Shown here piece by piece: positions 1 to 14,024 of a stretch of DNA of 14,028 bases. How positions within the stretch are numbered: position 1 is the stretch's first letter; each line of letters opens with the position of its first letter. Position numbers and translations under genes: made by a program. The notes beneath the pieces were generated by a model. The model searched no databases, was not told the DNA's origin, and saw only the letters and a list, made by a program, of their open reading frames with translations. This stretch comes from a virus, in the UHGV virus genome UHGV-0127916. One strand, given 5' to 3'.

Positions 1-2
1 CG

Positions 3-173
3 GAGCACGTCGTAGAGGCATTTAAAAAAGGTGAGCTAACACGACATCAAGTAGTAATGAATCGTAATATGGCAAGGAGTCGAGGTTATCCAGAGCGAGC
101 AGCTTGCTTCAATGAAGCACTCAAGATTATTGATGAATTAAGAAAAAATGAAAAAGAATCTGAAACAGAGTAA
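3..173 (+). CDS. 3' end of an upstream gene (partial, hypothetical protein)
   Basis: An open frame in codon phase 3,6,9... runs from the window edge to TAA at 171-173 (...ALKIIDELRKNEKESETE*). The RBS of the next gene follows 8 nt later. It is missing from the ORF track because no start codon lies in the window. Confidence 0.35.
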   Translation, partial: EHVVEAFKKGELTRHQVVMNRNMARSRGYPERAACFNEALKIIDELRKNEKESETE

Positions 174-192
174 AGAATAGAAGGAGAAAACT

Positions 193-360
193 ATGAGCGA
201 AACTAAGAAACCAATTCCGCGCACTTACCTACACGTTGACCCTGAAATCTTCAAGGTTTTATTTGCTGAAGCCAAGAAAAGGCAAATTATGGTCAGTGAT
301 TTGATGTTAGAAATCATTACTGAAGCAGCAGAGAACATCAAACAAAAAAAGGGTAAGTGA
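193..360 (+). CDS. Small ribbon-helix-helix (Arc/CopG-like) DNA-binding protein, 55 aa
   Basis: ATG at 193 is preceded by AAGGAG (181-186) and the frame runs 55 codons to TGA at 358-360. The pattern RTYLHVDPEIFKVLFAEAKKRQIMVSDLMLEIITEAAE fits the strand-helix-helix layout of RHH repressors. This is a pattern-based call only. Confidence 0.5.
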   Translation: MSETKKPIPRTYLHVDPEIFKVLFAEAKKRQIMVSDLMLEIITEAAENIKQKKGK

Positions 361-411
361 TCCTCATTCACTTTAGTAGCGCATTAAGCGTGATTTATAA
401 GGAGATTTTTA

Positions 412-1065
412 ATGATTAATGAAGAACAATTTGTAAAAGTTCCTATGTGGATTCTAAAAATAAGCCAAGTAAACGGGCATAAATTTACAGATAGTGCTAA
501 AAACCTTTACTGCTATCTGAAAGGGTTTGATCGTGCATTTCCCTCTTACGCTAAGATAGGCGATGTTTTTGGCATAACACCAAGAGCAGCAGAGGAAAGG
601 GTTAAGAAATTGCTCGAAATGGGATTAATTATAAAAGATGCACGACCAGGAAGTTCTAATGTCTATCAAGTGGTAGATATTCCACAAGAAGAAGCTAGAC
701 AAGAAGCCCAGACACAACAAGAAGCTACTGTTAAAGCTGTTCCTGATCCGCTTCCACCTACAGAAGATAATAAACAGCCTTCTTTTGATGTTCTTGATGA
801 TTGGGATGCGCCTTTGCCGTGGGAGACGGAAGAAACACCTGTTTCATCAAGTGAAAAGGTAGCTAATGATAATGAGGAGGATGTGTTAGAAAATTTTGCC
901 TCTCTTATCATCCAGGAGAAGAATACCAGAACAGGAGGAGCATCCTTTCTAGAATTTGCAACATCGTTAGCCTATAAGCACAGGTTAAAGCTACCAAATG
1001 GTATTGAGGCATATTTTGCTAAGAAACATCCCAAAGTATATGAAGACTTTGATATTCCATTTTAA
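412..1065 (+). CDS. HTH-domain protein with acidic C-terminal half; putative replication-initiator or regulator
   Basis: 217-aa ORF with AAGGAG at 399-404, 7 nt before the ATG. The N-terminal ~90 aa resemble winged-HTH domains of phage/plasmid Rep or regulator proteins; the rest is acidic and Pro-rich. The function is inferred. Confidence 0.75.
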   Translation: MINEEQFVKVPMWILKISQVNGHKFTDSAKNLYCYLKGFDRAFPSYAKIGDVFGITPRAAEERVKKLLEMGLIIKDARPGSSNVYQVVDIPQEEARQEAQTQQEATVKAVPDPLPPTEDNKQPSFDVLDDWDAPLPWETEETPVSSSEKVANDNEEDVLENFASLIIQEKNTRTGGASFLEFATSLAYKHRLKLPNGIEAYFAKKHPKVYEDFDIPF

Positions 1066-1076
1066 TAAGGAGGGTT

Positions 1077-1355
1077 ATGATTCAATATTTAGTAAAAAAT
1101 CAAGTAGACAGAATTCAGTGTAATGACACAGGAAAACGCATCTACGAAACACTTGCTTACCTCTATAAAGGAAAGCCAACACCGCTAAAATATAGCGATG
1201 TGTTACATCGAGCAGCTTGCTCTGAAGATGGTTTAAAATTCTGGCTTAGACAGCTATCAAATTTCGGTGTTATAGAGATTAAAGAATTATCTTTCTCTAC
1301 ATTCAATCTCAAAAGACTAGATAAAGAAATAGAATTCATCTATTCCACTCTCTAA
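1077..1355 (+). CDS. Hypothetical protein, 92 aa
   Basis: ORF with AGGAGG at 1068-1073 just upstream of the ATG, starting 12 nt after the previous stop. No recognisable motif. Confidence 0.7.
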   Translation: MIQYLVKNQVDRIQCNDTGKRIYETLAYLYKGKPTPLKYSDVLHRAACSEDGLKFWLRQLSNFGVIEIKELSFSTFNLKRLDKEIEFIYSTL

Positions 1356-1487
1356 AATCTCTCTATGTAATTAAAATATAAAAGGAAAACATTATTATGA
1401 TAGTAGCTATGTATTGGTTATTGTTCTTTATCACGTTAGAAGCATATTTCGGGGTGTTTTCCTTTAAAAGAAAAGGAAAAGTAAATA

Positions 1488-1898
1488 ATGGCAAAAAGAA
1501 AAAACAACGTTGTTAAGAAAATCGGTGATTCAGCTTCTCTTCTAAGTAAACCTAAATCTATTCTAAGACGCAAAGACTTTAAAGAGCTAGTTACGCTCAC
1601 CAAGCAAAATAGCGCCCCTGGCGAATGGAAAACAGAGATCATAGAACATTCTCCCTCTGTGCCTTGTGGAGATGAATTTAACGCCTTACAAGAAATCTTA
1701 TCTTCAACACCTGGCGTATTCTGGAAACCTAGAAAAAGAAAAGAGTATATCGTTGATAGCTCTGATTTACGCAAATACCAGATTTTAGGATTTGAAGATT
1801 ATAATCACTACGTCGGTTATCTCGCCACCAATGGCCTAAATAATTTAGTCCCTGAATTCCAAATTTTAGATGGTGCTGATCACTATGGAGACTTTTAA
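1488..1898 (+). CDS. Hypothetical protein, 136 aa (basic N-terminus)
   Basis: ORF with AAGGA at 1473-1477. It is in the same orientation and tightly packed with its neighbours, and its stop at 1896-1898 abuts the next start. Confidence 0.65.
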   Translation: MAKRKNNVVKKIGDSASLLSKPKSILRRKDFKELVTLTKQNSAPGEWKTEIIEHSPSVPCGDEFNALQEILSSTPGVFWKPRKRKEYIVDSSDLRKYQILGFEDYNHYVGYLATNGLNNLVPEFQILDGADHYGDF

Positions 1899-1899
1899 T

Positions 1900-2238
1900 A
1901 TGAACAAAAACACGTATGACACAATTTACTCACTAATTAATTATTATGAGGATGATTACCTCCTGCCTTTAAACCGTGCTGAACTTGAAGCATACAGAGA
2001 AAACACGCCAGCGGCACTCAATGAGGCGTTTAAACACTGGGATTTAGCTGTGAATGCCTTGGAGCAACTCTCTAAGCGTGTAGAGATGCTCTGTAAGCGT
2101 GAGAACGCATATCTAACAGCGGATCAGATATGGGAGCTATCAAACTGGATAGAAGATATTGAATCTGATGTTCGCTATGTGGGAGATGGCCTTATCGAAC
2201 TAGCTCAACGCTTAGGCGCTGCTATCACAGAAGAATAA
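1900..2238 (+). CDS. Hypothetical small acidic helical protein, 112 aa
   Basis: I prefer ATG at 1900 (MNKNTYD...) over the ORF-track start at 1870, because GGAG at 1888-1891 sits 8 nt upstream and the previous gene ends at 1898. The protein has about 24 Asp/Glu against 11 Lys/Arg. Confidence 0.65.
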   Translation: MNKNTYDTIYSLINYYEDDYLLPLNRAELEAYRENTPAALNEAFKHWDLAVNALEQLSKRVEMLCKRENAYLTADQIWELSNWIEDIESDVRYVGDGLIELAQRLGAAITEE

Positions 2239-2267
2239 AAAAAGCAACAAAAAAGTTGTAAAATATC

Positions 2268-2296
2268 TTGACATTTCATATATTGTATGTTAATAT
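2268..2296 (+). promoter_or_regulatory. Near-consensus sigma70 promoter: TTGACA, 17-nt spacer, TGn-TAATAT (extended -10)
   Basis: TTGACA at 2268-2273, a 17-nt spacer, TG at 2288-2289 and TAATAT at 2291-2296, with an A-rich tract upstream. It lies in a 350-bp non-coding gap and faces the downstream operon. Confidence 0.6.
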
Positions 2297-2496
2297 AATT
2301 ATATAGGGGTGATTATTTTTCCTTTATTGGTTCGATATTAAAAATTCTTCTTGTCGTTAAAGGGGAGTAAAATCTCCGCTCCCCGCTTCTCCTCCTTAAG
2401 TAAATACTGTGTCATTATTACCTCTTTTTTCCTTTGTTATGCATACATCTTGGAGTATGCATAACATAGGGTAATTACATAGGTACAAGTTAATAA

Positions 2497-2526
2497 AAGG
2501 CGGCTTTAAATGCTGCCTTTTATTTT
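2497..2526 (+). terminator. Intrinsic terminator inside the leader, about 200 nt downstream of the promoter
   Basis: 8-bp stem AAGGCGGC / GCTGCCTT with one G-U pair and a 7-nt loop TTTAAAT, followed by TTATTTT. Confidence 0.5.
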
Positions 2527-2588
2527 GCCCGTTATGCAACTTAAAAGTTGTATTTCTTACTTTAAACAAGGTAACAAGGTTTATATAA

Positions 2589-2801
2589 ATGTTGTTCTTA
2601 AATGATAAAGAGCAAATCATCAAGTATAAAGATGAAATGCTGAAAATTAATCCACAAATTACCGAAATGGTAGCTAAATACGCTGGGTGTTCTGTAGAGG
2701 AAGTAGAAAGATGTGTTGAAAAATATTTTTCTCCTTCTTCTCCGTCTACACCTTCCCTTAATGAATTAATCAAATTAAAAGCTAAGGAGATTACTAAATG
2801 A
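2589..2801 (+). CDS. Hypothetical protein, 70 aa
   Basis: ORF whose stop overlaps the next start as ATGA (2798-2801), suggesting translational coupling. Its own RBS is weak (AAGG about 11 nt upstream). Confidence 0.5.
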   Translation: MLFLNDKEQIIKYKDEMLKINPQITEMVAKYAGCSVEEVERCVEKYFSPSSPSTPSLNELIKLKAKEITK

Positions 2802-3160
2802 TTATTGATTTAGACACTCTGTTTCCAGTTCGAAAGACTTTCACAGATATTGTAAGTTATTGTACTGATCCGTTTGCCTCTGTAGAAAGCAAGGTTTTTG
2901 CTTCTCTTCCTGCTGATGTTGAATGCGGAGACTTGATCACCAGCACTGGCGCTAAATATGAATCAGGAGATGATATTTATGTTGTTATGAGTGAATTTGT
3001 AACGGCTGGAGAAAACAAGCCTGTAGATGTGCTACGTAGCAATGCTGGCCTTGTATGCATCAAAGCTGATGCGCTGAATGCTGTAAGTGAAGCAGCAAAA
3101 ACAGCACTAATTAAAAAAGGCTTTCAGCTTGAAGGCTTCCATTCTGTTTTCACTTCTTAA
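2798..3160 (+). CDS. Hypothetical acidic protein, 120 aa
   Basis: AAGGAG at 2784-2789, 8 nt before the ATG; coupled to the upstream ORF. Confidence 0.7.
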   Translation: MIIDLDTLFPVRKTFTDIVSYCTDPFASVESKVFASLPADVECGDLITSTGAKYESGDDIYVVMSEFVTAGENKPVDVLRSNAGLVCIKADALNAVSEAAKTALIKKGFQLEGFHSVFTS

Positions 3161-3178
3161 TAAAAGGAATAATAATAA

Positions 3179-4207
3179 ATGATTCTAGGTAATGATTACG
3201 TTGATTTAGCTCCTCTGTTCTCTGCGCATAGCACTAGAAACTATCTGCTTTCTACTCTTGATTTTACGGATTCTGTAGGGGTCACATCTCATAAAGTAGC
3301 TGTTTCCCAGCTTGTCGAAAGCAACGAATCTCTCTTTAACAAAGAGACAAGCCGTTTTAGTTCTGAACACAATGTTACTAAGCGAGAACAAGGTAAAGAA
3401 TGGCTGATTGAAATCCCGTATTTTCTTCGTGAAGATGTGATCCGTCCTTCTGATGTTCAAGGCAAGCGTAAGCCTGGCACTGATTTTCAGGAAACACTTA
3501 CTGATATCTATGCTGACTATGTTGCTAAACACCACGTAGCGTATCAGCGTACAAAAGAGAGCGTATTGGCTGCATCTCTGTTTAGTGGTCGCACCTACAC
3601 GCCTAAAACTGATGATGTTCTTATCGAGTGGGGCAAGCTGTTTAACGTATCAGCTATGAAAGCCACTGTGAACGCTTCCAGCACTGACACCACGAAGATT
3701 TTTAAAGAATTTGATCAGATTGCTACTGACATTATCGAAAAAGCACAAAGCCAGGCGGCTGCTGTAGAGCGTATTGTTGTTTTCTGTAAACCGGAAGCCT
3801 TCTCTGCAATTCGATTCTCTGCTGGTATGGCAAACGCATTCCAGTATGTAAGCCCACTGGAAGAAGGGAACGTTGTGTATCAGCGTCGTGACCTGCTGCC
3901 AGGAGTGACAGCGTTCACTATTCCAGGAACTAACATTGATGTTATTAAACTGGTAGATCCGCTACACCTGGCACATATGACCGCAGACGCTGTAGCTGTG
4001 CCTAAATTCGCTAAAGGCTCTAACGTATATCAGAACATCTACGGGGCTGCTTCCAGCACCTTTGAACTGATTAATGCCGCTCCTGCTGAGGTGTATAGCT
4101 ATAGCTATGAATCTTCTCGTGGTGATGCTGTTAACGTTGTTACAGAGAATAGCCAGATGGTTGTAAACCACGGTGTAGGCTTCTCCGTTCAAATCACTGT
4201 TAAATAA
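3179..4207 (+). CDS. Hypothetical protein, 342 aa; possibly a major structural (capsid-like) protein
   Basis: Long ORF with an RBS and no nucleotide-binding or catalytic motif that I can see. It is followed directly by a very strong intrinsic terminator, as highly expressed structural genes often are. The structural assignment is speculative. Confidence 0.8.
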   Translation: MILGNDYVDLAPLFSAHSTRNYLLSTLDFTDSVGVTSHKVAVSQLVESNESLFNKETSRFSSEHNVTKREQGKEWLIEIPYFLREDVIRPSDVQGKRKPGTDFQETLTDIYADYVAKHHVAYQRTKESVLAASLFSGRTYTPKTDDVLIEWGKLFNVSAMKATVNASSTDTTKIFKEFDQIATDIIEKAQSQAAAVERIVVFCKPEAFSAIRFSAGMANAFQYVSPLEEGNVVYQRRDLLPGVTAFTIPGTNIDVIKLVDPLHLAHMTADAVAVPKFAKGSNVYQNIYGAASSTFELINAAPAEVYSYSYESSRGDAVNVVTENSQMVVNHGVGFSVQITVK

Positions 4208-4225
4208 TATTTTAACGTGTAATAG

Positions 4226-4260
4226 AGGCGTGGCGTGTATTCACGCTTCGCCTTTTTTTT
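4226..4260 (+). terminator. Strong rho-independent terminator (attenuator) after the 342-aa gene
   Basis: GC-rich stem of about 11 bp (GGCGTGGCGTG / CACGCTTCGCC, one mismatch, one G-U) with loop TATT, followed by T8 at 4253-4260. Confidence 0.75.
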
Positions 4261-4293
4261 ATTTATTTTTAAATTTTGAGAGGTGATTAAAAT

Positions 4294-4497
4294 ATGGAAG
4301 TGATTTTGAAATCAAAAAATGGGGTGCACGTACATTTAGATGCTAATGATTCTAGAGGCTTGTTAAATCTGAAATATCTATGTTCTCTCTTAGATGTGCC
4401 CTATGAAGGCGTAAAAGCCCGTATGTTCAGATTAAACGAGAGTATTGATCAGGCTCTACACCATTTCTTAAGTAAAGAAGGTGGTAAAAATGATTAA
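4294..4497 (+). CDS. Hypothetical protein, 67 aa
   Basis: ORF with AGGTGA at 4281-4286, 7 nt before the ATG. Confidence 0.55.
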   Translation: MEVILKSKNGVHVHLDANDSRGLLNLKYLCSLLDVPYEGVKARMFRLNESIDQALHHFLSKEGGKND

Positions 4498-4513
4498 TAT
4501 AAGGGGATTTTAA

Positions 4514-6343
4514 ATGTTAGAAATTAACACTTCTAAAATTAAGAACACAGTTACATTTAGTGTAGATAAAGACAGCTTGAAAAAAGCGAAAGACTCTATT
4601 ACAAGCCTAAAAGAATTCACTGATAATATCAAGCCAGCTAAACTGAGGTTTGATAATGTCACTAAAGGCTATAAGAAAGCACAAAGCGAAGTAGACAAGA
4701 TTGCTCAACAGAAAGCTAAAACAGAAAAGCAAAATCAAAGAGCACAAGCTGCCGCAGCAAGAGCACAGGCAAGGCAACAGCAACAAATAGCAGCACGTAA
4801 AGAGAAAGCAGAATTAAAGCTCCTCGATGTTTCAAGCTCTATCAGTGCAATGCACCGCCTCTCTGTAGCGGAACAATACAAAGCTATTGCACAGGCTAGA
4901 GAGATAGCGAAACAATACGAACAAGGCGCTATCTCGCTTGCACGTATGAATAGCCAGATGAAACGCTTACAACAGCAACAACGTAAGATTAATGGCAACA
5001 GAAAAGCTCAATTAGCCCCCGTTAAGGGAGGATCAGGGAATTCCGCCACGATGGGCGCTCTGTTATTTGGAGGCGCTACGGCGGCGGCTGGCGTGATGGC
5101 TGTAAGTAAAGCCTCTGAATTTATGGCTAACAGCTTTGCTAACGCAGAGACACAAGGAGAGCTAATCCAACGTGCAAGGCTTGGCGGTGTAGACGTTAAC
5201 CAGATGTATAACATTACAGAATGGGCGTATAGAAACGGCGTTGACTCTATGATGGGTGATCAAGGGGCTAGGAAATACCTGGATCAGATGAAAGATGTTA
5301 GGGAACGTGCCGCAAAATCCTACAGTGAAGCTGAATTGGTGAAAGATAAGAAAACCGGAAAATCTGAATGGAAAGGCGGTGATAACGCTATTAATGAACT
5401 TCTAAACATCGGAGTTATTAACAAAAGCGACCTTAAAAAATTTGCTGATAATCCAGCCGGATTAATTTCTAAGGCTGTTAATGGAATGATGAAAAAAGGG
5501 TTTTCAGACTCCCAAATTGGACAACGTTTAGAAGACCTGGGCGATGATTTGATGCTTACATCAAAATATTGGCAACGTTCCGTTAAAGATGTACAAGAAA
5601 GTATTAATCAGCAAAAAGCCTCTGGAAAATGGCTAACAGAAACACAGCAAGAATCTATCGTTAAATTCAGAGAGCTAAACAGACAGCTTTCACAGCTTTC
5701 TGATGCAAGACAAGTAGCATTCGTAGACGGCTTTATGAAATCTCTTGATCCAAAAGTAACGGAAGAGTTTATGAAAAACCTTTCTAATCTCACTCCGTAT
5801 TTTACGAAGCTAGGAGAAGCTACAGGAAGTCTCTTTGAAGCTATTATGAAGATTGTAAACTGGTTTAATCGTAATGATGATAAGACAGATGCTATTCAGA
5901 AAAATATGGGTGATGCACCGCCATTAAGCAATGAAGGAATGAAGCAGAATCTTTCTAAGCTCGTTCCTGACCAATATAAAGGCGCTGGCACTGCAACAAC
6001 TACACCTGATAATAGTCATTCTCTCTTTAACACGATTAAGGGATTGCTTTTCGATGATAATTCTTCTGTGTCAGATGTAAAAATGTCAGTCAGCGAAGCA
6101 CCGATAACCAATCTCAAACAGGGGGCTTTAAATAATCTTGCAATGACAACTCCGGCTTATAATTTATCTCCTGTATTCAATCTGAATCCTACATTTGAAG
6201 TGGTAACGGAGGTTCCGCTTACTATTAATTCTGACACATCCAGATTAAGCGATTATGTGGATTTTACAGCGAGAGCAAGTCGGGATAGCTTCTTGAAATC
6301 ATTAACATTAACCAGCTTGTCAGGACAATCTAACGGCGGGTAA
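4514..6343 (+). CDS. Hypothetical 609-aa protein: N-terminal Ala/Gln-rich coiled coil, Gly/Ala-rich hydrophobic segment, large C-terminal domain (tape-measure- or ejection-protein-like)
   Basis: AAGGGG at 4501-4506, 7 nt before the ATG. Features read from the translation: QNQRAQAAAARAQARQQQQIAARKEK, then GGSGNSATMGALLFGGATAAAGVMAVS. No enzymatic motif recognised. Confidence 0.8.
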   Translation: MLEINTSKIKNTVTFSVDKDSLKKAKDSITSLKEFTDNIKPAKLRFDNVTKGYKKAQSEVDKIAQQKAKTEKQNQRAQAAAARAQARQQQQIAARKEKAELKLLDVSSSISAMHRLSVAEQYKAIAQAREIAKQYEQGAISLARMNSQMKRLQQQQRKINGNRKAQLAPVKGGSGNSATMGALLFGGATAAAGVMAVSKASEFMANSFANAETQGELIQRARLGGVDVNQMYNITEWAYRNGVDSMMGDQGARKYLDQMKDVRERAAKSYSEAELVKDKKTGKSEWKGGDNAINELLNIGVINKSDLKKFADNPAGLISKAVNGMMKKGFSDSQIGQRLEDLGDDLMLTSKYWQRSVKDVQESINQQKASGKWLTETQQESIVKFRELNRQLSQLSDARQVAFVDGFMKSLDPKVTEEFMKNLSNLTPYFTKLGEATGSLFEAIMKIVNWFNRNDDKTDAIQKNMGDAPPLSNEGMKQNLSKLVPDQYKGAGTATTTPDNSHSLFNTIKGLLFDDNSSVSDVKMSVSEAPITNLKQGALNNLAMTTPAYNLSPVFNLNPTFEVVTEVPLTINSDTSRLSDYVDFTARASRDSFLKSLTLTSLSGQSNGG

Positions 6344-6376
6344 TTCCCGCCATAACATTACAAGGAAATTATTATT

Positions 6377-7090
6377 ATGGCGACCGCCGGGATTTTAACC
6401 ATACGTGCAGCAAATACTCCAGAACAACACGTTCAAGCGGTTTATAACGCGGAACAAGATATAAACTCTACAAAAAACGAAAATAGCAAAGCCAATAAAA
6501 CAAAAGGAGAAAATGGATTTGCTATTGTTACCAGTGGGCTGGCATCTTCTGGTAATGACGTTTATGAAAATTATATGGCACTGGCCTTTGACAGTGTAGA
6601 CGATGTAAACGTAAAACGTCAAGCAGATGTTACTAGCTACCCCGTAGAGAATGGTGCTACTGTATCGGATCACGTTCAAATTAAAAACAATAAGTTTGCT
6701 CTTAAGGGGCGTATCACTGAAACACCGATTAAAAGCGATCCTGGCTTGTTAAAGAGTGCAGGGGTGAACGGGAACAGAAGATCATTAGCTATAGACTACC
6801 TGAATCAGATTATGGACAGTAGACAGCCTTTTCTTCTTGTTACAGAAAATAAAACTTTTGAGAACGTTGTTTTAACAGGCATCGAATACACAGAAGAGGC
6901 AAGCGAATCCCTGGTATTTGATCTTAGCTTTGAGCAGATCAGGCTCGTTTCGTATGGCACAGTAAACACTGTAGCTATCAAAACACAGCCATCTAAGAAC
7001 ATCGGGGCTAATATGAAAAAACGTGTTAACACTGAAAAATCAAGTAGTGAAGGTGAAGACACTATTACGCCTGCCTTTAAACAGGAATAG
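6377..7090 (+). CDS. Hypothetical protein, 237 aa
   Basis: ORF with AAGGA at 6362-6366; last gene of the rightward array, ending 80 nt before the convergent integrase gene. Confidence 0.75.
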   Translation: MATAGILTIRAANTPEQHVQAVYNAEQDINSTKNENSKANKTKGENGFAIVTSGLASSGNDVYENYMALAFDSVDDVNVKRQADVTSYPVENGATVSDHVQIKNNKFALKGRITETPIKSDPGLLKSAGVNGNRRSLAIDYLNQIMDSRQPFLLVTENKTFENVVLTGIEYTEEASESLVFDLSFEQIRLVSYGTVNTVAIKTQPSKNIGANMKKRVNTEKSSSEGEDTITPAFKQE

Positions 7091-7131
7091 CCGTAAACGC
7101 CTCTAAAACACTCTGTAACGATGTAATTATA

Positions 7132-7164
7132 AAAGAGGCTACCAATCTATGTTGAAGCCTCTTT
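7132..7164. terminator. Putative bidirectional terminator between the convergent operon and the integrase gene
   Basis: 9-bp stem AAAGAGGCT / AGCCTCTTT with a 15-nt loop, in the 80-bp gap between the stops at 7090 (+) and 7172 (-). The loop is large and the U-tract weak. Confidence 0.4.
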
Positions 7165-7171
7165 ATTGCGT

Positions 7172-8443
7172 CTATGGCGTTGTTTTACGCCTTAAATTTG
7201 ATTTTTTATTGATTGATAAGCCTTTCTCTATTTCAGGGTAGCGTAGAAGCTCAATATAGTTTTTAAGCTCTACTGGAGAAGCTGCATTCTTGCTATATGT
7301 GCGGAATGTCTCTGTATTGCCGCGTGTATGGCCCAGGAGAAGGGCGATCCTGTCTTCTGGAATTTGATTTCGATCAAGAAGCTGTGCTACTCCGTGTCTC
7401 AGAGAATGAAACACCTTCCTTTCTGTTCCCTTTTCCCCTAAAGCCTTTCGTTTAGCTCTTGTAAATCTCTGCGTGTGCCACGTGGAACGTTTACCATCAG
7501 CACGCTCTGTAATGCTGGCGTGATAGAACAAAAAGCCATTATGAGGCTTTTCACGAAGAGATAACACCAATGGAGTGATAAGGCTATGCACAGGCACAAG
7601 ACGTGCCGCAGCTTTCGTTTTTCCCTGTGTGATTTCAAAACACAGCACACCTTCGATCTCTTTCACATCGTCTATTGTGAGACTTGCTATCTCATTGATC
7701 CGCATACCTGTATACATTCCGATCAGTGTTATATTTTGCATTTCTTCTTCATCAGCCAGCATTGAGAACACTTTTGCGAGTTCATCATTGCTAAAGGCTT
7801 CATAATTCACCTTGCTACTTTTAGCTTCAAGGCCGTGACCTCGCCAAGGGTTATCTTGTGGTGCATCGTGGTAGCGGTTACGAGCAAGATCCCAAATCTG
7901 GGCTAATGCACTAATGTAGTTTTGTATTGTTTGTGGTGCTTTCTCATTTTTTAGGTTATCTAACCAGCTAGTAACAATAGTTCGGTTAACGTCACGAAGC
8001 TGAACATCGCGTTTATTCAGATGTTCTAAGAGCACCTCTACGGCTTTGTTTGTCTTTGATAGCGTAGTTAGCTTGCGCTTCTCGCTAAACTGGAGAATGT
8101 ACTGATCCCGCATATTTAAAAGAGAAGGGCAGCCAATAGAAGAATCATTAAATGATTCAGATACTTGAAATGCATATGTTCCAGCTTTCCGTAGTTCTGT
8201 AATAATTTGCTCGATCTTCGATGTTTTCTCACGTTGAGGCTTTAGCTTGTTACGTAGTTTTATCCATTCCAGCGCCACCGCATCACGGAACAACCGTGCT
8301 TCTCGAATATCTCTTGTGCCTGTGCTTTTAACGTAGCTACACCGCCCACCAAATAGATGACGCATATACTTAGGTATAGCGATCCTTACCAGATAGTTTC
8401 CGCAAGAATCTGAAATTAAATAACGATCTCTCTTGAAACTCAT
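7172..8443 (-). CDS. int: Tyrosine-type site-specific integrase, 423 aa
   Basis: The C-terminal half shows the tyrosine recombinase catalytic pattern: Arg in TGMRINE, HSLRH (H-x-x-R), LLGHTRGN and the Tyr in FRTYSK. It lies directly beside the tRNA-derived att core. Confidence 0.9.
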   Translation of the reverse strand: MSFKRDRYLISDSCGNYLVRIAIPKYMRHLFGGRCSYVKSTGTRDIREARLFRDAVALEWIKLRNKLKPQREKTSKIEQIITELRKAGTYAFQVSESFNDSSIGCPSLLNMRDQYILQFSEKRKLTTLSKTNKAVEVLLEHLNKRDVQLRDVNRTIVTSWLDNLKNEKAPQTIQNYISALAQIWDLARNRYHDAPQDNPWRGHGLEAKSSKVNYEAFSNDELAKVFSMLADEEEMQNITLIGMYTGMRINEIASLTIDDVKEIEGVLCFEITQGKTKAAARLVPVHSLITPLVLSLREKPHNGFLFYHASITERADGKRSTWHTQRFTRAKRKALGEKGTERKVFHSLRHGVAQLLDRNQIPEDRIALLLGHTRGNTETFRTYSKNAASPVELKNYIELLRYPEIEKGLSINKKSNLRRKTTP

Positions 8444-8564
8444 ACAAACCCCGGCTATTTTGTCAGGGCTTTTGCACTTGATAGTGTACAGTGTGAAGTG
8501 TCGATGTGTTGTTAGTTTTGCTTTTGATTCAAAGCATTACAGGAGCTTGCTAGGCAAGCGAACG

Positions 8565-8607
8565 ACCGTAGAAATACGTGCCGGTTCGAGTCCGGCCTTC
8601 GGCACCA
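8565..8607 (+). other. 3' fragment of a tRNA-Leu gene (leuX-like); attR-type core, not an intact tRNA
   Basis: ACCGTAGAAATACGTGCCGGTTCGAGTCCGGCCTTCGGCACCA contains a canonical T-arm (GCCGG / TTCGAGT / CCGGC), the acceptor 3' strand CTTCGGC, discriminator A and CCA. No complementary GCCGAAG 5' acceptor strand occurs within about 120 nt upstream. As I recall it, this matches the 3' end of enterobacterial tRNA-Leu(CAA). Confidence 0.6.
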
Positions 8608-8624
8608 CATCGTATGCAAATCGA

Positions 8625-8647
8625 GTCGCTCAAGGGCGGCTTTTTTT
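8625..8647 (+). terminator. Intrinsic terminator 17 nt after the tRNA 3' end (orphaned tRNA terminator)
   Basis: Stem GTCGC / GCGGC (one G-U pair) with loop TCAAGG, followed by T7 at 8641-8647. Confidence 0.5.
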
Positions 8648-8831
8648 GTGTCTGGGATCCGTTAGTTACCTATCTTTCTCGCTATTTTAACTCTCTCAGG
8701 GCTAACCAATTCCAACCCATCGCAAACGAAAAATGTTGGTACAGGCGTTGGTATTTTCGGTTCGATATTAATTTGTATTAGCTCAGTCCTGATCTGACAG
8801 CTATCTGCCAGATCAGGTTCGGATTAATACA

Positions 8832-11800
8832 TTATATCTGCCCGCCTACACCTTTAAACTTCTCAATAAACGCGACGATCTTCTGGAAAACCGTCTGTTT
8901 TTTCGTCTTATATTGCGGATTTAACGGACTGAGTTTTGGCAATGTCTCGTTTAATTCCGTGCCATTTTCGGTGGCGTATTCACGTTTTAAAGACGTGCGA
9001 ATATAGCGTTTCGCCGCCTCTTCATTGAGATTTTCTTCTTTGATCAATGCTGCTGCTTCACGTTGCTGTTCACGTTGAGCAAAGGTAAAAAACGCGTCAA
9101 TGATGCTGGCTTTATCCGGCAAATCATCCAGGTTCGTTTGCTGAATAAAATCGACCACCAGACCCTCTTTCGCACGGTTCCCAAGGCTTGAACGAATTAA
9201 GCGTTTGACCTCTTCGGTCATTTCGCCCTTACCTTTGTTTTGTCTGTTGTGTTCGAAAATAAGTCCAAGGATATAATCCAGGTTTATTTCCTGAGACTTC
9301 AGCAAATCGACCTCAAAAACAACGTCATCCCAGTCAGTGGTTGATTTTTCTTTTTTCTCGGCTTCTTTCTCACGGCGCTGCCAGTCACGAATATCGTTAT
9401 AGGCAGAACGATAATCCTGAATCTTGCGAGCAGCAGGGAGACGAATTGTTTGCAATTCAGCGAGCTTTTCATCATCCACATAATGTTCTGCTTTGAATTT
9501 TTCTACCGCAACAGGATCGCTAAGATCGATTTGTTGCAGGGCTTTCAGCGTGGCAAATTCATCATAGTTTTGCAGGATGTTCTCGGCACGCAGGTATTCA
9601 CCAAACAGTTTAACGAAGTCTTTCTTCTCTTTTTCACTTTCAATACTGGCAGGGTCAGGGAACCGTTGTTCCAGTTCTGAAACTACTGTCATAAAGCCGC
9701 GTTTAGCTTCACCGGTGGTAGCATCAGTAAAGCCTTCCATATACTCTGCATAACTCTTTTCTAACACCACATTTTTGGTGTTTTTGTCACCAAACAGCGT
9801 TATGGCATCAATAGTTGAGCGTTCCAGATCCCGAAAAGTGACGATGTTACCGAAGGTTTTCGTAGCGTCATAAATGCGGTTGGTGCGGGAAAATGCCTGC
9901 ATCAGGCCGTGAAAACGCAGGTTTTTATCAACGAATAGCGTGTTCAATGTTGGAGCATCGAATCCGGTTAAAAACATCCCCACAACGATTAACAAGTCAA
10001 CATCCTGATTTTTAACCCGCTGAGCCAGGTCCCGATAGTAGTTCTGAAACCCCTTGCTATCAGTGCTGAAATTCATTTGAAAATGTTCGTTATACTCACG
10101 AATAGCGGCATCCAGAAACTCTTTAGCACTGCTGTCCATTGCACTGGTATCAAAAGTTTCATCGGAAACTTCACCAATGGCATTTTGTTCTTCATTAGCG
10201 GCAAAGGAGAAGATTGTCGCAACACGTAGTGGTTTATAGGTAGCAGATTTATTAGCGGCTTCCTCTTGTAACCGTTTAAACGTCGCGTAATAGGCTTTCG
10301 CGGCATCCACGCTGCTCACTGCCAGCATGGCATTAAAACCTTTGGAGCCGGGGTAAGTACGGTGGGTCTTCTGGCGGAAGTTGTTCAGGATATATTGCGT
10401 GATTTCCTGAATACGCATGGGATGAAGAAACGCCTGCTGATTTTCAGCCGCACTCAGTTTTTTCTCGTCAGTTTCTGTCTCTAAAGACTTAAACTGTGGC
10501 CGCACATCGTTGTAGTCCACCTTGAATTTGAGCACTTTTTCATCACGGATCGCATCGGTAATCACATACGAATGCAATTCACGGCCAAATACGCTGGCAG
10601 TCGTTTCTGAGCCTAAAGCGTTTTCCGGGAAAATAGGGGTACCGGTAAAACCAAACTGATAATAGCGTTTGAATTTCTTCTTCAGGTTTTTCTGCGCTTC
10701 TCCAAACTGGCTGCGGTGGCATTCATCAAATATAAACACCACTTGCTGATTGTATACAGGCAGGTCGCTTTCTGCTTTCATCAGGTTATTAAGTTTCTGA
10801 ATAGTGGTGACGATAATTTTGTTATCGTCCTTATCCAGATTTCGTTTTAGACCTGCGGTATTTTCCGAGCCGTTGACGCTGTCTGGCGAAAAACGCTGAT
10901 ATTCCTTCATGGTCTGGTAATCGAGGTCTTTCCTGTCGACCACAAAGAAAACTTTATCAATAAAGTCCAGTTCTGTTGCCAGCCGCGCGGCTTTAAAGCT
11001 GGTGAGGGTTTTACCAGAACCGGTAGTGTGCCATATAAAGCCACCGCTTTCGGGGTTAGACCAGTTTTTCGCTTTATAGGAGCTGTTGATTTTCCATAAG
11101 ATTCGTTCGGTAGCTGCAATCTGGTACGGTCGCATCACCAGTAGTGTCTGGCTACTGTCAAACACGCTGTAGTTCACCAGAACATTAAGCAGGGTATGTT
11201 TCTGGAAAAAGGTAGCGGTAAAGTCTTTGAGGTCTTTTATCAGCGTGTTGTCTGATTTCGCCCAGTTCATGGTGAAGTCAAAACTGTTTTTATCGCGCTT
11301 TGTGGTGTTGGCAAAATAACGGGTATCTGTGCCGTTAGAAATGACAAACAGTTGCAGATACTTAAACAGGGAATTTTCGCTGTTAAAACTCTCTTTACTG
11401 TAACGATGTATCTGGTTAAAGGCCTCACGAATCGCCACGCCGCGCTTTTTCAGTTCGATTTGTACCAGTGGTAAGCCATTAACCAGGATCGTGACGTCAT
11501 AACGGTTAGCATGAGAACCCGCCTGTTCAAACTGCTGGATAATCTGCACCTTATTGCGCATGAGATTCTTTTTATCTATCAGATAGATGTTCTCAAGACG
11601 CTCGTCATCAAAAATAAAGTCGCAAATATAGTCGATATGGATTTTACGGGTCTTATCCAGAATGCCATCGCTCGGGTTATCCAGATACTGCTCCGTGAAA
11701 CGCCGCCACTCGCTGTCATTAAACACCACACCATTGAGGCTCTGAAGCTGTTCCCGAACGTTGGCCAGCATCGCTGACTGTGATTTTACGGGTATAAATT

Positions 11801-11948
11801 CATAGCCCTGATTTTGCAGGTCCTGAATCAGTTCACGTTCCAGGTCCGATTCGCTCTGGTAGCTGTCGCCTGTTGGCTCAGCTTTGATGTACTTATCAAG
11901 AACGATAAAGTTATTGGATTCAGCAATGGTGTGTGTCTGATGAGTCAT
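8832..11948 (-). CDS. hsdR: Type I restriction enzyme R subunit (HsdR), 1038 aa; type IC/EcoR124-like by recollection
   Basis: PD-(D/E)xK nuclease motif (D...VQIELKK), helicase motif I TTGSGKT and motif II FIFDECH. The length and the N-terminus [14 protein letters not shown] match my recollection of EcoR124I HsdR. RBS AAGGA precedes the ATG. Confidence 0.95.
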
Positions 11949-12069
11949 AGCGCATCCTTTGTGCCGTCTGGCAAGGACCGGAAGGGGGGTAATGGTGACT
12001 TCCGGCGCGTAAAAAATAGTCTATATACTGACCGGGCGTTAAGGTGGCCCGATCGGTAGCAATGGTCAA

Positions 12070-12594
12070 TTAATTACTGACAGTTTCAGGTTTCGGGAAA
12101 CTGAACAGTAAATCACGGTAGTATTCGTATTGTTTCTGGCGCAACTCGATTTCACGCGGAAGACCTTCAGTGATGGAGTTGGTCAGGGTGTCGAATTTAT
12201 CGAGTATTTCGACAATGCGAGCTTGCCAGGTGAGTGGCGGTACAGGGATTGGGTATTTCATTATATCCTCTTTACTGCCACGCGGCATTTTTGCTCCTTT
12301 AGCATGCTGCATGTTGTATTCAAAGAATTTGTCATCTGCCAAAATCTGATATAGATATCTGGTATTTATTGAGCTATCTATGCAACGAATAACCAATACA
12401 TCGCCATTTGTTCCACCGATACAATCTGCTTGCCAAATTTTTTTCAAATATGGGCGGATATTCCCAATCAATATATCGTTAGGTATAAACTCCGTTAATT
12501 TACCTGATGTCGGTACATGATTAGATAATGATTTTCCTGCTCTGTTTTGCAGCAGATTATCTACGCCAACATAGATGATATGACCTTTATATAC
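12070..12594 (-). pseudogene. hsdS: Truncated hsdS: C-terminal ~174 codons (TRD2 plus conserved C-terminal helix) of a type I specificity subunit
   Basis: The frame is open from 12594 down to the stop at 12070-12072. The translation ...NDILIGNIRPYLKKIW...YPIPVPPLTWQARIVEILDKF...LRQKQYEYYRDLLFSF carries HsdS target-recognition-domain and C-terminal motifs. The N-terminal half is missing; the frame hits a stop at 12595-12597 inside the IS-proximal sequence. The ORF-track start at 12471 is a TTG. Confidence 0.75.
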
Positions 12595-14024
12595 TCACTA
12601 TAGCATTGGTGGGATATTCCAGAGGAGGTCATCATGCATTCGGAAAATATTGCGGCTTACGTCGGGCTGGATGTGCATAAAGAAACGTTGGCGGTTGCTA
12701 TTGCTGCACCTGAACGGCTTGGCGAAGTTCGTTATTATGGTACGATTAACAACGAAGCCCAGGCTGTACGTCGATTATTTCAGAAATTGCAGGGACTTTA
12801 CGGAAACATTCTTTCCTGCTATGAGGCTGGCCCCTGTGGTTTTGGGCTATATCATCAACTCACAGCGATGAATATAAAATGCCAGGTTATTGCCCCTTCC
12901 CGCATACCAAAATCACCGACAGACAGAATCAAAAATGATCATCGGGACGCAATTTCTCTCGCCAGGTTACTGCGGGCTGGAGAACTTACCCCTGTCTGGA
13001 TCCCTGACCTGACTCATGAAGCTATGCGGGATCTAATCAGAGCCCGTGCAGCAGCTAAACGAGACAGCAGAGTTGCCCGACAGCGAATTCTGAGCATGCT
13101 ATTGCGAACAGACAAACATTATGCAGGAAAGCACTGGACAGGAAAACATCGAACCTGGTTAGCTAATCAATCATTTAGTCAGCCATCTCAACAGATTGCT
13201 TTTCAACACTATTGTCAAAGTCTGGAGCAGATTGAAGATCGCATACTTCAACTCGACCAGGAAATATCTCGCCTGTTACCTGAGTGGTCTCTGTGCAATC
13301 TGGTCTGCCAGTTGCAGGCTCTTAAAGGTGTTGGTCAGCTAATTGCAATAACTCTGGTTGCTGAACTGGGTGATTTTTCGCGATTTTCCAATCCCAAACA
13401 GCTCATGGCTTTTCTGGGACTGGTGCCAGGTGAATATTCCAGTGGAAACAGTATTCGTCCCAGAGGAATAACAAAAGTTGGAAACAGCGAACTGAGACGT
13501 CTGCTTTACGAAGCCGCCTGGTCTTATCGTACACCTGCAAAAGTTGGGGCATGGCTTATATATTACCGACCGGACTCTGTAACACAATATTCCAAAGATA
13601 TTGCATGGAAAGCTCAACAACGATTGTGTTCTCGTTACCGAAGTCTGACAGCAAAAGGGAAAAAATCACAAGTAGCCATTACGGCGGTGGCTCGTGAGTT
13701 GACTGGATTTATGTGGGATATTGCACTTGCTGCCCAATCATCATTCAGTCAGCAGAAGCAAAATTAAACCCTGAAGCAGTCAGACACGGAATGAGTGATC
13801 CTCGTAAAAGAATTCAGGGAAGCCAGAATGCGCTAATACCTGCACGTAGAAAGAGGCCAGCTCACTGCGTAAATCGTCATGGGGCTAAAATCCCCGAATA
13901 AGAGTTTGTAAAATCCAAGATACAGTCTGACTGTTTCAGGTTCTTTAATCCGCGATATAACGAAGCTCCCGGAGCTGCGTAAGGTCTTTTTGGGCTTAAT
14001 ATTTGACAAAGGTCATAAGAATTC
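12572..14024 (+). mobile_element. IS110-family insertion sequence (IS1111-like layout); boundaries approximate
   Basis: Contains the DEDD transposase gene. A 10-bp inverted repeat TATGACCTTT (12579-12588) / AAAGGTCATA (14008-14017) brackets it. It has a short 5' end and a non-coding 3' end of at least 240 bp, and it interrupts hsdS. Confidence 0.6.
12634..13767 (+). CDS. IS110-family transposase/recombinase (DEDD RuvC-like N-domain plus C-terminal Tnp domain), 377 aa
   Basis: N-terminus YVGLDVHKETLAVAI and C-terminal LKGVGQLIAITLVAELGDFSRFSNPKQLMAFLGLVPGEYSSGNSIRPRGITKVGNSELRRLLYEAAW are hallmark IS110-family segments. GAGGAGG RBS lies 5 nt before the ATG. Confidence 0.95.
   Translation: MHSENIAAYVGLDVHKETLAVAIAAPERLGEVRYYGTINNEAQAVRRLFQKLQGLYGNILSCYEAGPCGFGLYHQLTAMNIKCQVIAPSRIPKSPTDRIKNDHRDAISLARLLRAGELTPVWIPDLTHEAMRDLIRARAAAKRDSRVARQRILSMLLRTDKHYAGKHWTGKHRTWLANQSFSQPSQQIAFQHYCQSLEQIEDRILQLDQEISRLLPEWSLCNLVCQLQALKGVGQLIAITLVAELGDFSRFSNPKQLMAFLGLVPGEYSSGNSIRPRGITKVGNSELRRLLYEAAWSYRTPAKVGAWLIYYRPDSVTQYSKDIAWKAQQRLCSRYRSLTAKGKKSQVAITAVARELTGFMWDIALAAQSSFSQQKQN

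Follow-up and report, generated by a model that had tools for sequence, protein, structure and literature searches.

A capsid and tail-core operon in a 12.5-kb integrative element of Escherichia coli: a proposed satellite of phi92-like phages

The stretch of DNA analysed here, UHGV virus genome UHGV-0127916 (14,028 nucleotides; hereafter the window), is Escherichia coli chromosome and carries, between positions 2589 and 7090, a six-gene operon in which head and tail-core proteins related to those of phage phi92 can be recognized. The operon belongs to an integrative element that extends over 12.3–12.5 kb between repeats of a transfer RNA (tRNA) gene 3′ end, the window beginning in the middle of it. 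We regard it as probable, at roughly 0.7, that the six genes constitute the late (morphogenetic) operon of an integrative, helper-dependent satellite of about 12.5 kb which exploits phi92-like virulent myoviruses. The element would thus represent a new family of phage satellites, for which we infer helper dependence, the formation of small capsids and a role for the tail genes. A first-pass annotation of the sequence had proposed a partial virion module of a satellite-like element, a reading which fits all the evidence assembled below. No published description of the element was found in the full-text literature, where subscription journals are partly covered and an earlier description is therefore possible.

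The six genes and their phi92-type relatives

The open reading frames (ORFs) of the operon lie on the + strand at 2589–2801, 2798–3160, 3179–4207, 4294–4497, 4514–6343 and 6377–7090 and encode, in that order, products of 70, 120, 342, 67, 609 and 237 amino acids. The ORF list reproduces the six co-oriented frames of the first-pass annotation at their exact coordinates, the ATGA overlap it had claimed can be read at 2798–2801, and the intergenic gaps within the operon measure 16–86 nucleotides. That these are real genes and not chance frames follows from their orthologues in five diverged lineages, all of which are intact with zero stop codons, and from ratios of non-synonymous to synonymous substitution rates (dN/dS), which in comparisons with unsaturated dS are 0.12 (capsid protein), 0.18 (decoration protein) and 0.20 (tape measure); the operon is under purifying selection. 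The nearest phage relatives of its proteins are of the phi92 type (Stephanstirmvirinae, for example Justusliebigvirus), virulent myoviruses of about 148 kb that have no lysogeny module. The order of genes in phi92 is scaffold gp122, decoration protein gp123, capsid protein gp124 and a terminator, and then, after the neck, sheath, tube and chaperone genes, gp133, the tape measure gp134 and the tube initiator gp135. Since the same local order recurs here, the operon amounts to a compressed copy of two phi92-type structural segments.

The product of 342 amino acids (3179–4207, + strand) is identified by its matches as a major capsid protein of the lambda-E type (HK97 fold). It scores 53.2 bits against Pfam PF03864 Phage_cap_E (cut-off 22.9) over profile positions 13–329 of 329, matches phrog_29 (major head protein), can be aligned over its whole length with gp124, the phi92 capsid protein (22% identity, E 1e-9), and retrieves the solved capsid chains PDB 9zbi and 21uy. 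The protein of 120 amino acids encoded directly upstream (2798–3160, + strand) has no sequence match to anything named and, because comparison with phi92 gp123 likewise gave nothing, was identified by fold search only. An AlphaFold2 model based on a 22-sequence alignment (predicted local distance difference test, pLDDT, 71; one of five models confident) was compared with the PDB by Foldseek, and the best 13 matches are all capsid decoration proteins, including those of phiTE (9cul), Sf14 (9c2d), Bas63 (9ncf) and YSD1 and the SHP protein of phage 21, with probabilities of 0.85–1.0, template modelling (TM) scores of about 0.4–0.6 and E-values of 2e-3 or worse. The gene is also syntenic with gp123, the decoration gene directly upstream of the phi92 capsid gene, and by its predicted fold the product is a gpD/SHP-like head decoration protein. 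The first gene of the operon (2589–2801, + strand) takes the place of the scaffold gene upstream of the decoration and capsid genes. Its 70-amino-acid product ends in a C-terminal tail, PSLNELIKLKAKEITK, that is similar to the very end of the phi92 scaffold gp122; an hhalign comparison from C-terminus to C-terminus gives an E-value of 0.023 and a probability of just 2%, and members of this small protein family share only 22–28% identity. Its position and this faint resemblance suggest that it is possibly a mini-scaffold or scaffold mimic.

In the second half of the operon the product of 609 amino acids (4514–6343, + strand) matches the PHROG tape measure family phrog_16051 at 1.5e-53. Its residues 1–66 are 55% identical to the tape measure gp134 of phi92 (659 amino acids), and residues 86–609 are 26% identical (E 3e-35), an alignment that includes a Gly/Ala hydrophobic segment; the match to PDB 21vq chain V, which is gp134 in the solved structure, reaches 1.2e-38. 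Both this segment, which aligns with its gp134 counterpart, and the coiled coil that the first-pass annotation had described are present. A homologue in a solved tail, the coiled coil, the Gly/Ala segment and the position upstream of a tube initiator gene together identify the product as a tail tape measure protein, 50 residues shorter than that of phi92. The last gene (6377–7090, + strand) is assigned to a Dit-like tail tube initiator of 237 amino acids, which scores 99.3 bits against Pfam PF21821 Dit_like (cut-off 24.2), shares 60% identity with phi92 gp135 and matches PDB 21vq_N at 2.7e-78, as well as chains deposited as the tube initiators of phiTE and Pam3. The earlier guesses at capsid, tape measure and Dit-like proteins have in this way each been confirmed, be it by profile, by sequence or by fold. 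The protein of 67 amino acids (4294–4497, + strand) has its gene immediately ahead of that for the tape measure in every lineage, and has no match in Pfam, PHROGs or NCBIfam and none to phi92 gp133; its model (pLDDT 77) consists of a beta-hairpin and two helices and finds no fold match. A helix-turn-helix protein, suspected from the alignment, was discarded as an identification for it, given a model without a fold match and homologues that are too few and too close. Searches of the same three family databases found no terminase, portal, protease, lysis or nucleoside triphosphatase family in the operon, as the first-pass annotation had stated, and no terminase, portal, protease, sheath, tube or lysis family among the ORFs of the part of the element that lies in the window.

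The relationship to phi92-like phages extends to the DNA. In a local comparison with the complete genome of phage VEcB the element is similar at three places, namely the tube-initiator gene (71% DNA similarity), the first 87 nucleotides of the tape measure gene (86% identity) and a 46-nucleotide noncoding block. The block lies at 4367–4412 of the related E. coli locus L001 (strain KK19-02), where 44 of 46 nucleotides (96%) are identical to phi92 363–318, and recurs at 1838–1883 of a second locus, L003 (strain CUVET23-CCU12). The annotated left direct terminal repeat of phi92 (1–343) ends inside the block, between CGCGTTA and AGCACC. Among 50,697 phage records 62 contain the block, all of them Stephanstirmvirinae (Justusliebigvirus and its Klebsiella, Citrobacter and Serratia relatives), and where a record opens at the physical end of the genome the block occupies 318–363. 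It is also found in 428 of 5,426 complete E. coli genomes, always in the chromosome and nearly always in unannotated DNA. As the terminase recognition site of T7/T3-type phages adjoins the terminal-repeat boundary, the block is a good candidate for a packaging-site mimic that would be recognized by the terminase of the helper. A mimic of the other, outer terminal-repeat boundary was not found.

A near-consensus sigma-70-type promoter-like site at 2268–2296 (+ strand; TTGACA, 17 nucleotides, TAATAT, with a TG; 10 of 12 consensus positions) is a match to the consensus only, and such sites are no commoner in the region than in shuffled sequence. It precedes a structured leader of about 230 nucleotides (2300–2526, + strand), with a folding energy of −67.3 kcal/mol compared with −44.5 ± 4.3 in shuffles (z = −5.3), which ends in a hairpin (2495–2521) and a U-run; hairpin and U-run (2495–2526) lie about 65 nucleotides ahead of the first gene, and three related loci (L003, L004 and L005) have unrelated hairpin and T-run elements at the same position. 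The late genes of phage lambda depend on antitermination at pR′-tR′, an arrangement which, by analogy, the leader appears to resemble, and the region 2268–2526 could correspond to an antitermination-controlled late operon or to a small RNA. The operon would be read from 2268–2296 through the terminated leader, for which read-through or antitermination would be needed, or else a helper-driven start. The region ahead of the operon has no DNA similarity to any phage, and no shared late-promoter motif was recognized between it and the phi92 intergenic regions inspected. The terminator that the first-pass annotation had placed after the capsid gene proves to be a 9-bp stem at 4225–4249 followed by a T-run (intrinsic terminator-like element, 4225–4259, + strand), and phi92 likewise has a terminator directly after its capsid gene. 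Acting as a head/tail attenuator it would allow head proteins to be made in quantity and hold tail-core proteins at a low level, a role consistent with the copy numbers of head and tail-core proteins in a virion.

The element, its replication module and its lineages

The right end of the element is defined by the right attachment site (attR, 8565–8607, + strand), an exact 43-nucleotide copy of the 3′ end of the tRNA-Leu gene leuX for which 0 matches would be expected by chance. Between it and the operon lies the gene of a tyrosine integrase of 423 amino acids (7172–8443, − strand), convergent with the six genes, which comprises DUF6538, SAM-like and catalytic domains and matches Pfam PF00589 (8e-17), PF20172 and PF13102 and phrog_1 (1e-36). 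L001 aligns with window positions 1–8767 in a single piece at 95.5% identity and contains the same 43 nucleotides twice, 12,501 nucleotides apart, the left copy lying inside an intact tRNA gene. A further E. coli locus, L030 (strain 89-3156), has the same cargo with a different integrase at a tRNA-Thr gene (thrW), between 28-nucleotide repeats 12,278 nucleotides apart, while a third lineage is inserted at a tRNA-Gly gene. The same cargo at three tRNA sites with different integrases speaks for a mobile element. The whole element is not a conventional prophage with the operon as its standard tail module, a case that the first-pass annotation had raised, and a complete prophage was rejected on the grounds that the attachment repeats delimit 12.3–12.5 kb without further structural genes; baseplate wedge and fibre genes are likewise absent from the 12.5 kb. 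Compared with the 5,426 E. coli genomes, window positions 1–8800 have a best identity of about 96%, with no near-identical copy among them. Several copies of the element in other strains are broken by insertion sequences (IS3, IS21, IS5 or IS1).

A winged-helix protein of 217 amino acids (412–1065, + strand) is likely to be a lambda O-like replication initiator, as it matches the ‘replication initiation protein’ family phrog_270 at 6.9e-11, several further O-like families and, weakly, Pfam HTH_36. About 1.6–2.1 kb upstream of the initiator gene L001 contains iteron arrays. These were seen at L001 4830–5810, about 1.2–2.2 kb to the left of window position 1, as at least five iteron families of 18–25 nucleotides with three to seven copies each, surrounding an AT-rich tract within 3 kb of DNA that has no annotated gene; the region is probably an origin of replication of complex design to which several proteins bind. 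The 3.9 kb beyond the left end of the window (L001 3100–7000) contain no ORF of more than 127 amino acids. Within the window the early or regulatory left region holds an ORF of 55 amino acids (193–360, + strand), an annotated coding sequence in related genomes for which family searches gave no match, and three small ORFs of 92, 136 and 122 amino acids (1077–2238, + strand), whose position is conserved in related elements and which have no significant family match. A separate stretch of 65 nucleotides upstream of the first small gene of the element (L001 6689–6753) is 74% identical to phi92 11955–12019, just upstream of and overlapping the 3′ end of gp037, beyond gp036; the similarity is weak (E 9e-5 in a local search) and may represent a shared regulatory element.

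Of the 5,426 complete E. coli genomes, 287 contain at least 80% of the six-gene module and 534 contain parts of it; the element occurs in roughly 5–8% of such genomes. Homologues of the capsid protein were found in E. coli, Citrobacter, Klebsiella, Enterobacter, Cronobacter, Dryocola, Sodalis, Serratia and metagenome contigs, and HMMER, run exhaustively over 1.84 billion cluster representatives, returned 82 relatives at E ≤ 1e-3. The capsid clade sits on chromosomal contigs of bacteria and is absent from every phage record searched, where the best identity is about 26%. The Klebsiella and Serratia loci were read directly, Citrobacter, Enterobacter and Cronobacter being represented by their capsid homologues. 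In both of the former the order is a small protein, one of about 120 amino acids, the capsid protein, one of about 63 amino acids, a tape measure of about 620 amino acids and the integrase, which means that a five-gene core has been kept from E. coli to Serratia at 37–77% capsid identity. The tape measure of the Klebsiella element is 40–42% identical to those of Phapecoctavirus-type Stephanstirmvirinae. The tube initiator is present in the window and in the E. coli loci L001, L003 and L030, and absent from L004, Klebsiella and Serratia. Relative to the window, L003 has a capsid protein of 21% identity and a tape measure of 63%, and L004 a capsid protein of 77% and a tape measure of 28%. For the L003 capsid protein neither Pfam nor the phages gave a match, and its only similarity to that of the window is a remote one over the full length. 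From these sequence comparisons a head module (small protein, decoration protein, capsid protein) and a tail module (small protein, tape measure and, in some cases, tube initiator) are seen to reassort between lineages. The lineages differ further in their accessory genes. Some have a second small recombinase at the end distant from the integrase (L004 1961–2512; L005 2968–3585 and 4394–5083; L008 3138–3689), either a serine resolvase of 183 amino acids or a tyrosine recombinase fragment of 183–205 amino acids, and the Klebsiella lineage also carries a Dam-type methylase.

The satellite model and its alternatives

In the proposed life cycle, infection by a phi92-like phage would trigger excision and replication of the element. 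The satellite capsid and decoration proteins would then assemble on the helper portal, protease and scaffold into small capsids fitted to about 12.5 kb, with the 70-amino-acid protein perhaps serving as a mini-scaffold. Since the genome is 8% of that of the helper, volume scaling would give such capsids a triangulation number of about T=3–4. The helper terminase would recognize the terminal-repeat-boundary mimic and package the satellite DNA, and the satellite tape measure and tube initiator would replace those of the helper at the baseplate hub, tails being nucleated on a satellite core. This last step is the least certain; most lineages carry a tape measure without a tube initiator. By the rule of thumb of about 0.15 nm of tail per tape measure residue, the 50 residues by which the protein is shorter would produce tails shorter by about 7 nm. 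The tail core could serve to commandeer tail nucleation, to provide the satellite with its own ejected pilot protein or to poison helper tails. To the model in its fullest form we give slightly less than an even chance: the satellite would put its own proteins in place of the helper capsid shell as well as of the core that nucleates the contractile tail and would produce chimeric virions, with head size and tail length set by the satellite, that are packaged by way of the terminal-repeat mimic, making it the first known satellite of this kind and the first to exploit virulent phages in Enterobacterales.

Several observations weigh against the satellite model. The packaging-site mimic, the origin and the left attachment site fall outside the window, on its left, and were seen only in related genomes that are 95–96% identical over the shared part. 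The capsid protein is just about 22% identical to that of the helper, and its fit with the helper portal and scaffold is not obvious; the link of the 70-amino-acid protein to the scaffold is statistically weak, and there is no established reason for a satellite to need its own tape measure. No inducer, antirepressor or excisionase was identified in the element. When the Klebsiella element was compared with a Klebsiella phi92-like phage in a small local search the mimic was weak (77% over 60 nucleotides), and those parts of the noncoding DNA of the L004, Klebsiella and Serratia lineages that were compared with all phages matched nothing. No encapsidation was seen in viromes, the IMG/VR matches being prophage calls in isolate genomes and the metagenome contigs chromosomal, and a search of a viral contig collection and of metagenome contigs for packaged or circular forms gave chromosomal contexts only.

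Another way to account for the same genes, which we judge unlikely, is an anti-phage interference island in which the diverged capsid protein, tape measure and tube initiator are dominant-negative poison subunits directed against phi92-like phages, the element itself spreading only vertically or by other means. In its favour, the genes form part of integrase-proximal cargo at tRNA hotspots, beside other defence or satellite islands, and the tape measure, with helper-like termini (55% identity over residues 1–66) and a diverged middle, has the form expected of a competitor for the same binding sites. Interference with tail assembly by satellite genes is moreover known from the Tai systems (PMC11364771). 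However, a pure poison would need neither a matched decoration protein nor an origin with several iteron families nor a copy of the helper terminal-repeat boundary, and the size of the element is tightly conserved, at 12.3–12.5 kb at two sites. No known defence system was matched by PADLOC, and the defence or anti-defence alternative of the first-pass annotation accordingly found no direct support. Interference and satellite spread are compatible with each other, and under the satellite model interference with the helper may occur as a side effect.

If the operon were what is left of a decaying prophage, phi92-like or other, without present function, this would explain the incomplete set of structural genes and the insertion sequences in some copies, yet phi92-like phages are virulent, of about 148 kb and without a lysogeny module. 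Precise attachment repeats, a conserved size, orthologues that are all intact with dN/dS of 0.12–0.20, a five-gene core retained from E. coli to Serratia and insertion at three tRNA sites with different integrases largely refute this explanation, which we consider very improbable. Least probable of all is an autonomous minimal virus, or a producer of particles resembling gene-transfer agents, that needs no helper: the element does encode a capsid protein, a decoration protein and a tape measure as well as a replication module, but nowhere in its 12.5 kb is there a gene for a terminase, portal, protease, tube, sheath, baseplate wedge, fibre or lysis protein, and where tube and baseplate are missing a tape measure and a tube initiator serve no purpose.

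Relation to known satellites and neighbouring features

If the satellite model is correct, the element would work most like two known groups, the capsid-forming phage-inducible chromosomal islands (cf-PICIs), which have their own capsid, and the PICI-like elements (PLEs), which depend on a virulent myovirus, have an initiator and iterons and form small capsids, and it would combine features that neither has. All satellites so far described from E. coli (P4-like, PICI and cf-PICI) exploit, to our knowledge, temperate helpers, and we know of no report of a satellite-encoded tape measure and tube initiator. The cf-PICIs carry a full set of head and packaging genes (HK97-type capsid protein, portal, protease, connectors and small terminase) and steal tails only, from temperate helpers. 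Those of Enterobacteria, a family described by de Sousa et al. (2023; PMC10085698), are small satellites integrated at tRNA genes or elsewhere in the chromosome; as is proposed for the present element, they build capsids from a protein of their own and borrow the rest of the virion from a helper. The element differs from them in that no portal, protease, connector or small terminase (TerS) was matched in Pfam, PHROGs or NCBIfam, in its lambda-E-type capsid protein and added tail-core genes, and in that its phage relatives are virulent 148-kb myoviruses. The PLE of Vibrio cholerae, with the helper ICP1, is likewise integrative and encodes its own initiator with iterons; it has a large virulent myovirus as helper, makes small capsids and exploits the helper packaging machinery, as the element would. 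The PLE is reported to remodel the helper coat protein with an external scaffold, TcaP (cited in PMC12846349). It encodes no capsid protein, has an initiator of the RepA_N type and uses a large serine recombinase, in contrast to the capsid protein, tyrosine integrase and Enterobacterales host of the element, in which no sequence relationship to PLE proteins was found.

Small capsids for genomes of about 11–15 kb are also made with CpmB of the Staphylococcus aureus pathogenicity islands and Sid of P4, which redirect the helper capsid protein, whereas the element brings its own. CpmB is a small protein that mimics the C-terminus of the helper scaffold, and the 70-amino-acid protein, given its weak match to gp122, would be its analogue. 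When set beside the structural module of phi92 (gp122–124 and gp133–135) the element has the same families, local order and post-capsid terminator, and differs in being integrative, in its size of 12.5 kb and in holding only 4–6 of roughly 30 virion genes. The recently described PICMIs are satellites of virulent phages (PMC10803314). They have no capsid genes and package concatemers into heads of helper size, whereas the element carries a capsid gene. The Streptomyces satellites Mulch and MiniFlayer encode encapsidation genes of their own (PMC10690885) and differ from the element in host, genes and organization, all of which are unrelated. The P4-like set (psu, sid, delta/ogr and alpha primase-helicase) has no family match in the element, nor has the PICI/PICMI set (AlpA, primase, TerS and Fis), the replication protein being an O-like initiator instead.

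Should the proposal hold, a small capsid would be obtained by means of an alternative capsid protein and not by remodelling that of the helper, and the 46-nucleotide block would be a candidate for the packaging site of the phi92-like phages themselves, so far undefined. The reassortment of head and tail modules would offer a natural system for the specificity of capsid and tail assembly. Phages of the phi92 type and related 150-kb myoviruses are common isolates that are considered for therapy, and an element present in roughly 5–8% of complete E. coli genomes and in other Enterobacterales could affect both phage efficacy and gene transfer.

The remaining features lie around the element. No tRNA, transfer-messenger RNA or known RNA gene was found in the window by ARAGORN or Rfam. 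To the right of attR the window contains the HsdR gene of an EcoR124-type (type IC) restriction system (8832–11948, − strand), a truncated HsdS fragment (12070–12471, − strand) and an IS110-family transposase gene (12634–13767, + strand), and the type I system appears to have been disrupted by the IS110-family insertion sequence. In strain CUVET23-CCU12 a P4-like satellite with integrase, psu and delta, which also carries a reverse transcriptase (L003 12956–18678), stands in tandem with the element; it is a genuine P4-like element clearly distinct from its neighbour, so that two unrelated satellites are stacked at a single locus.

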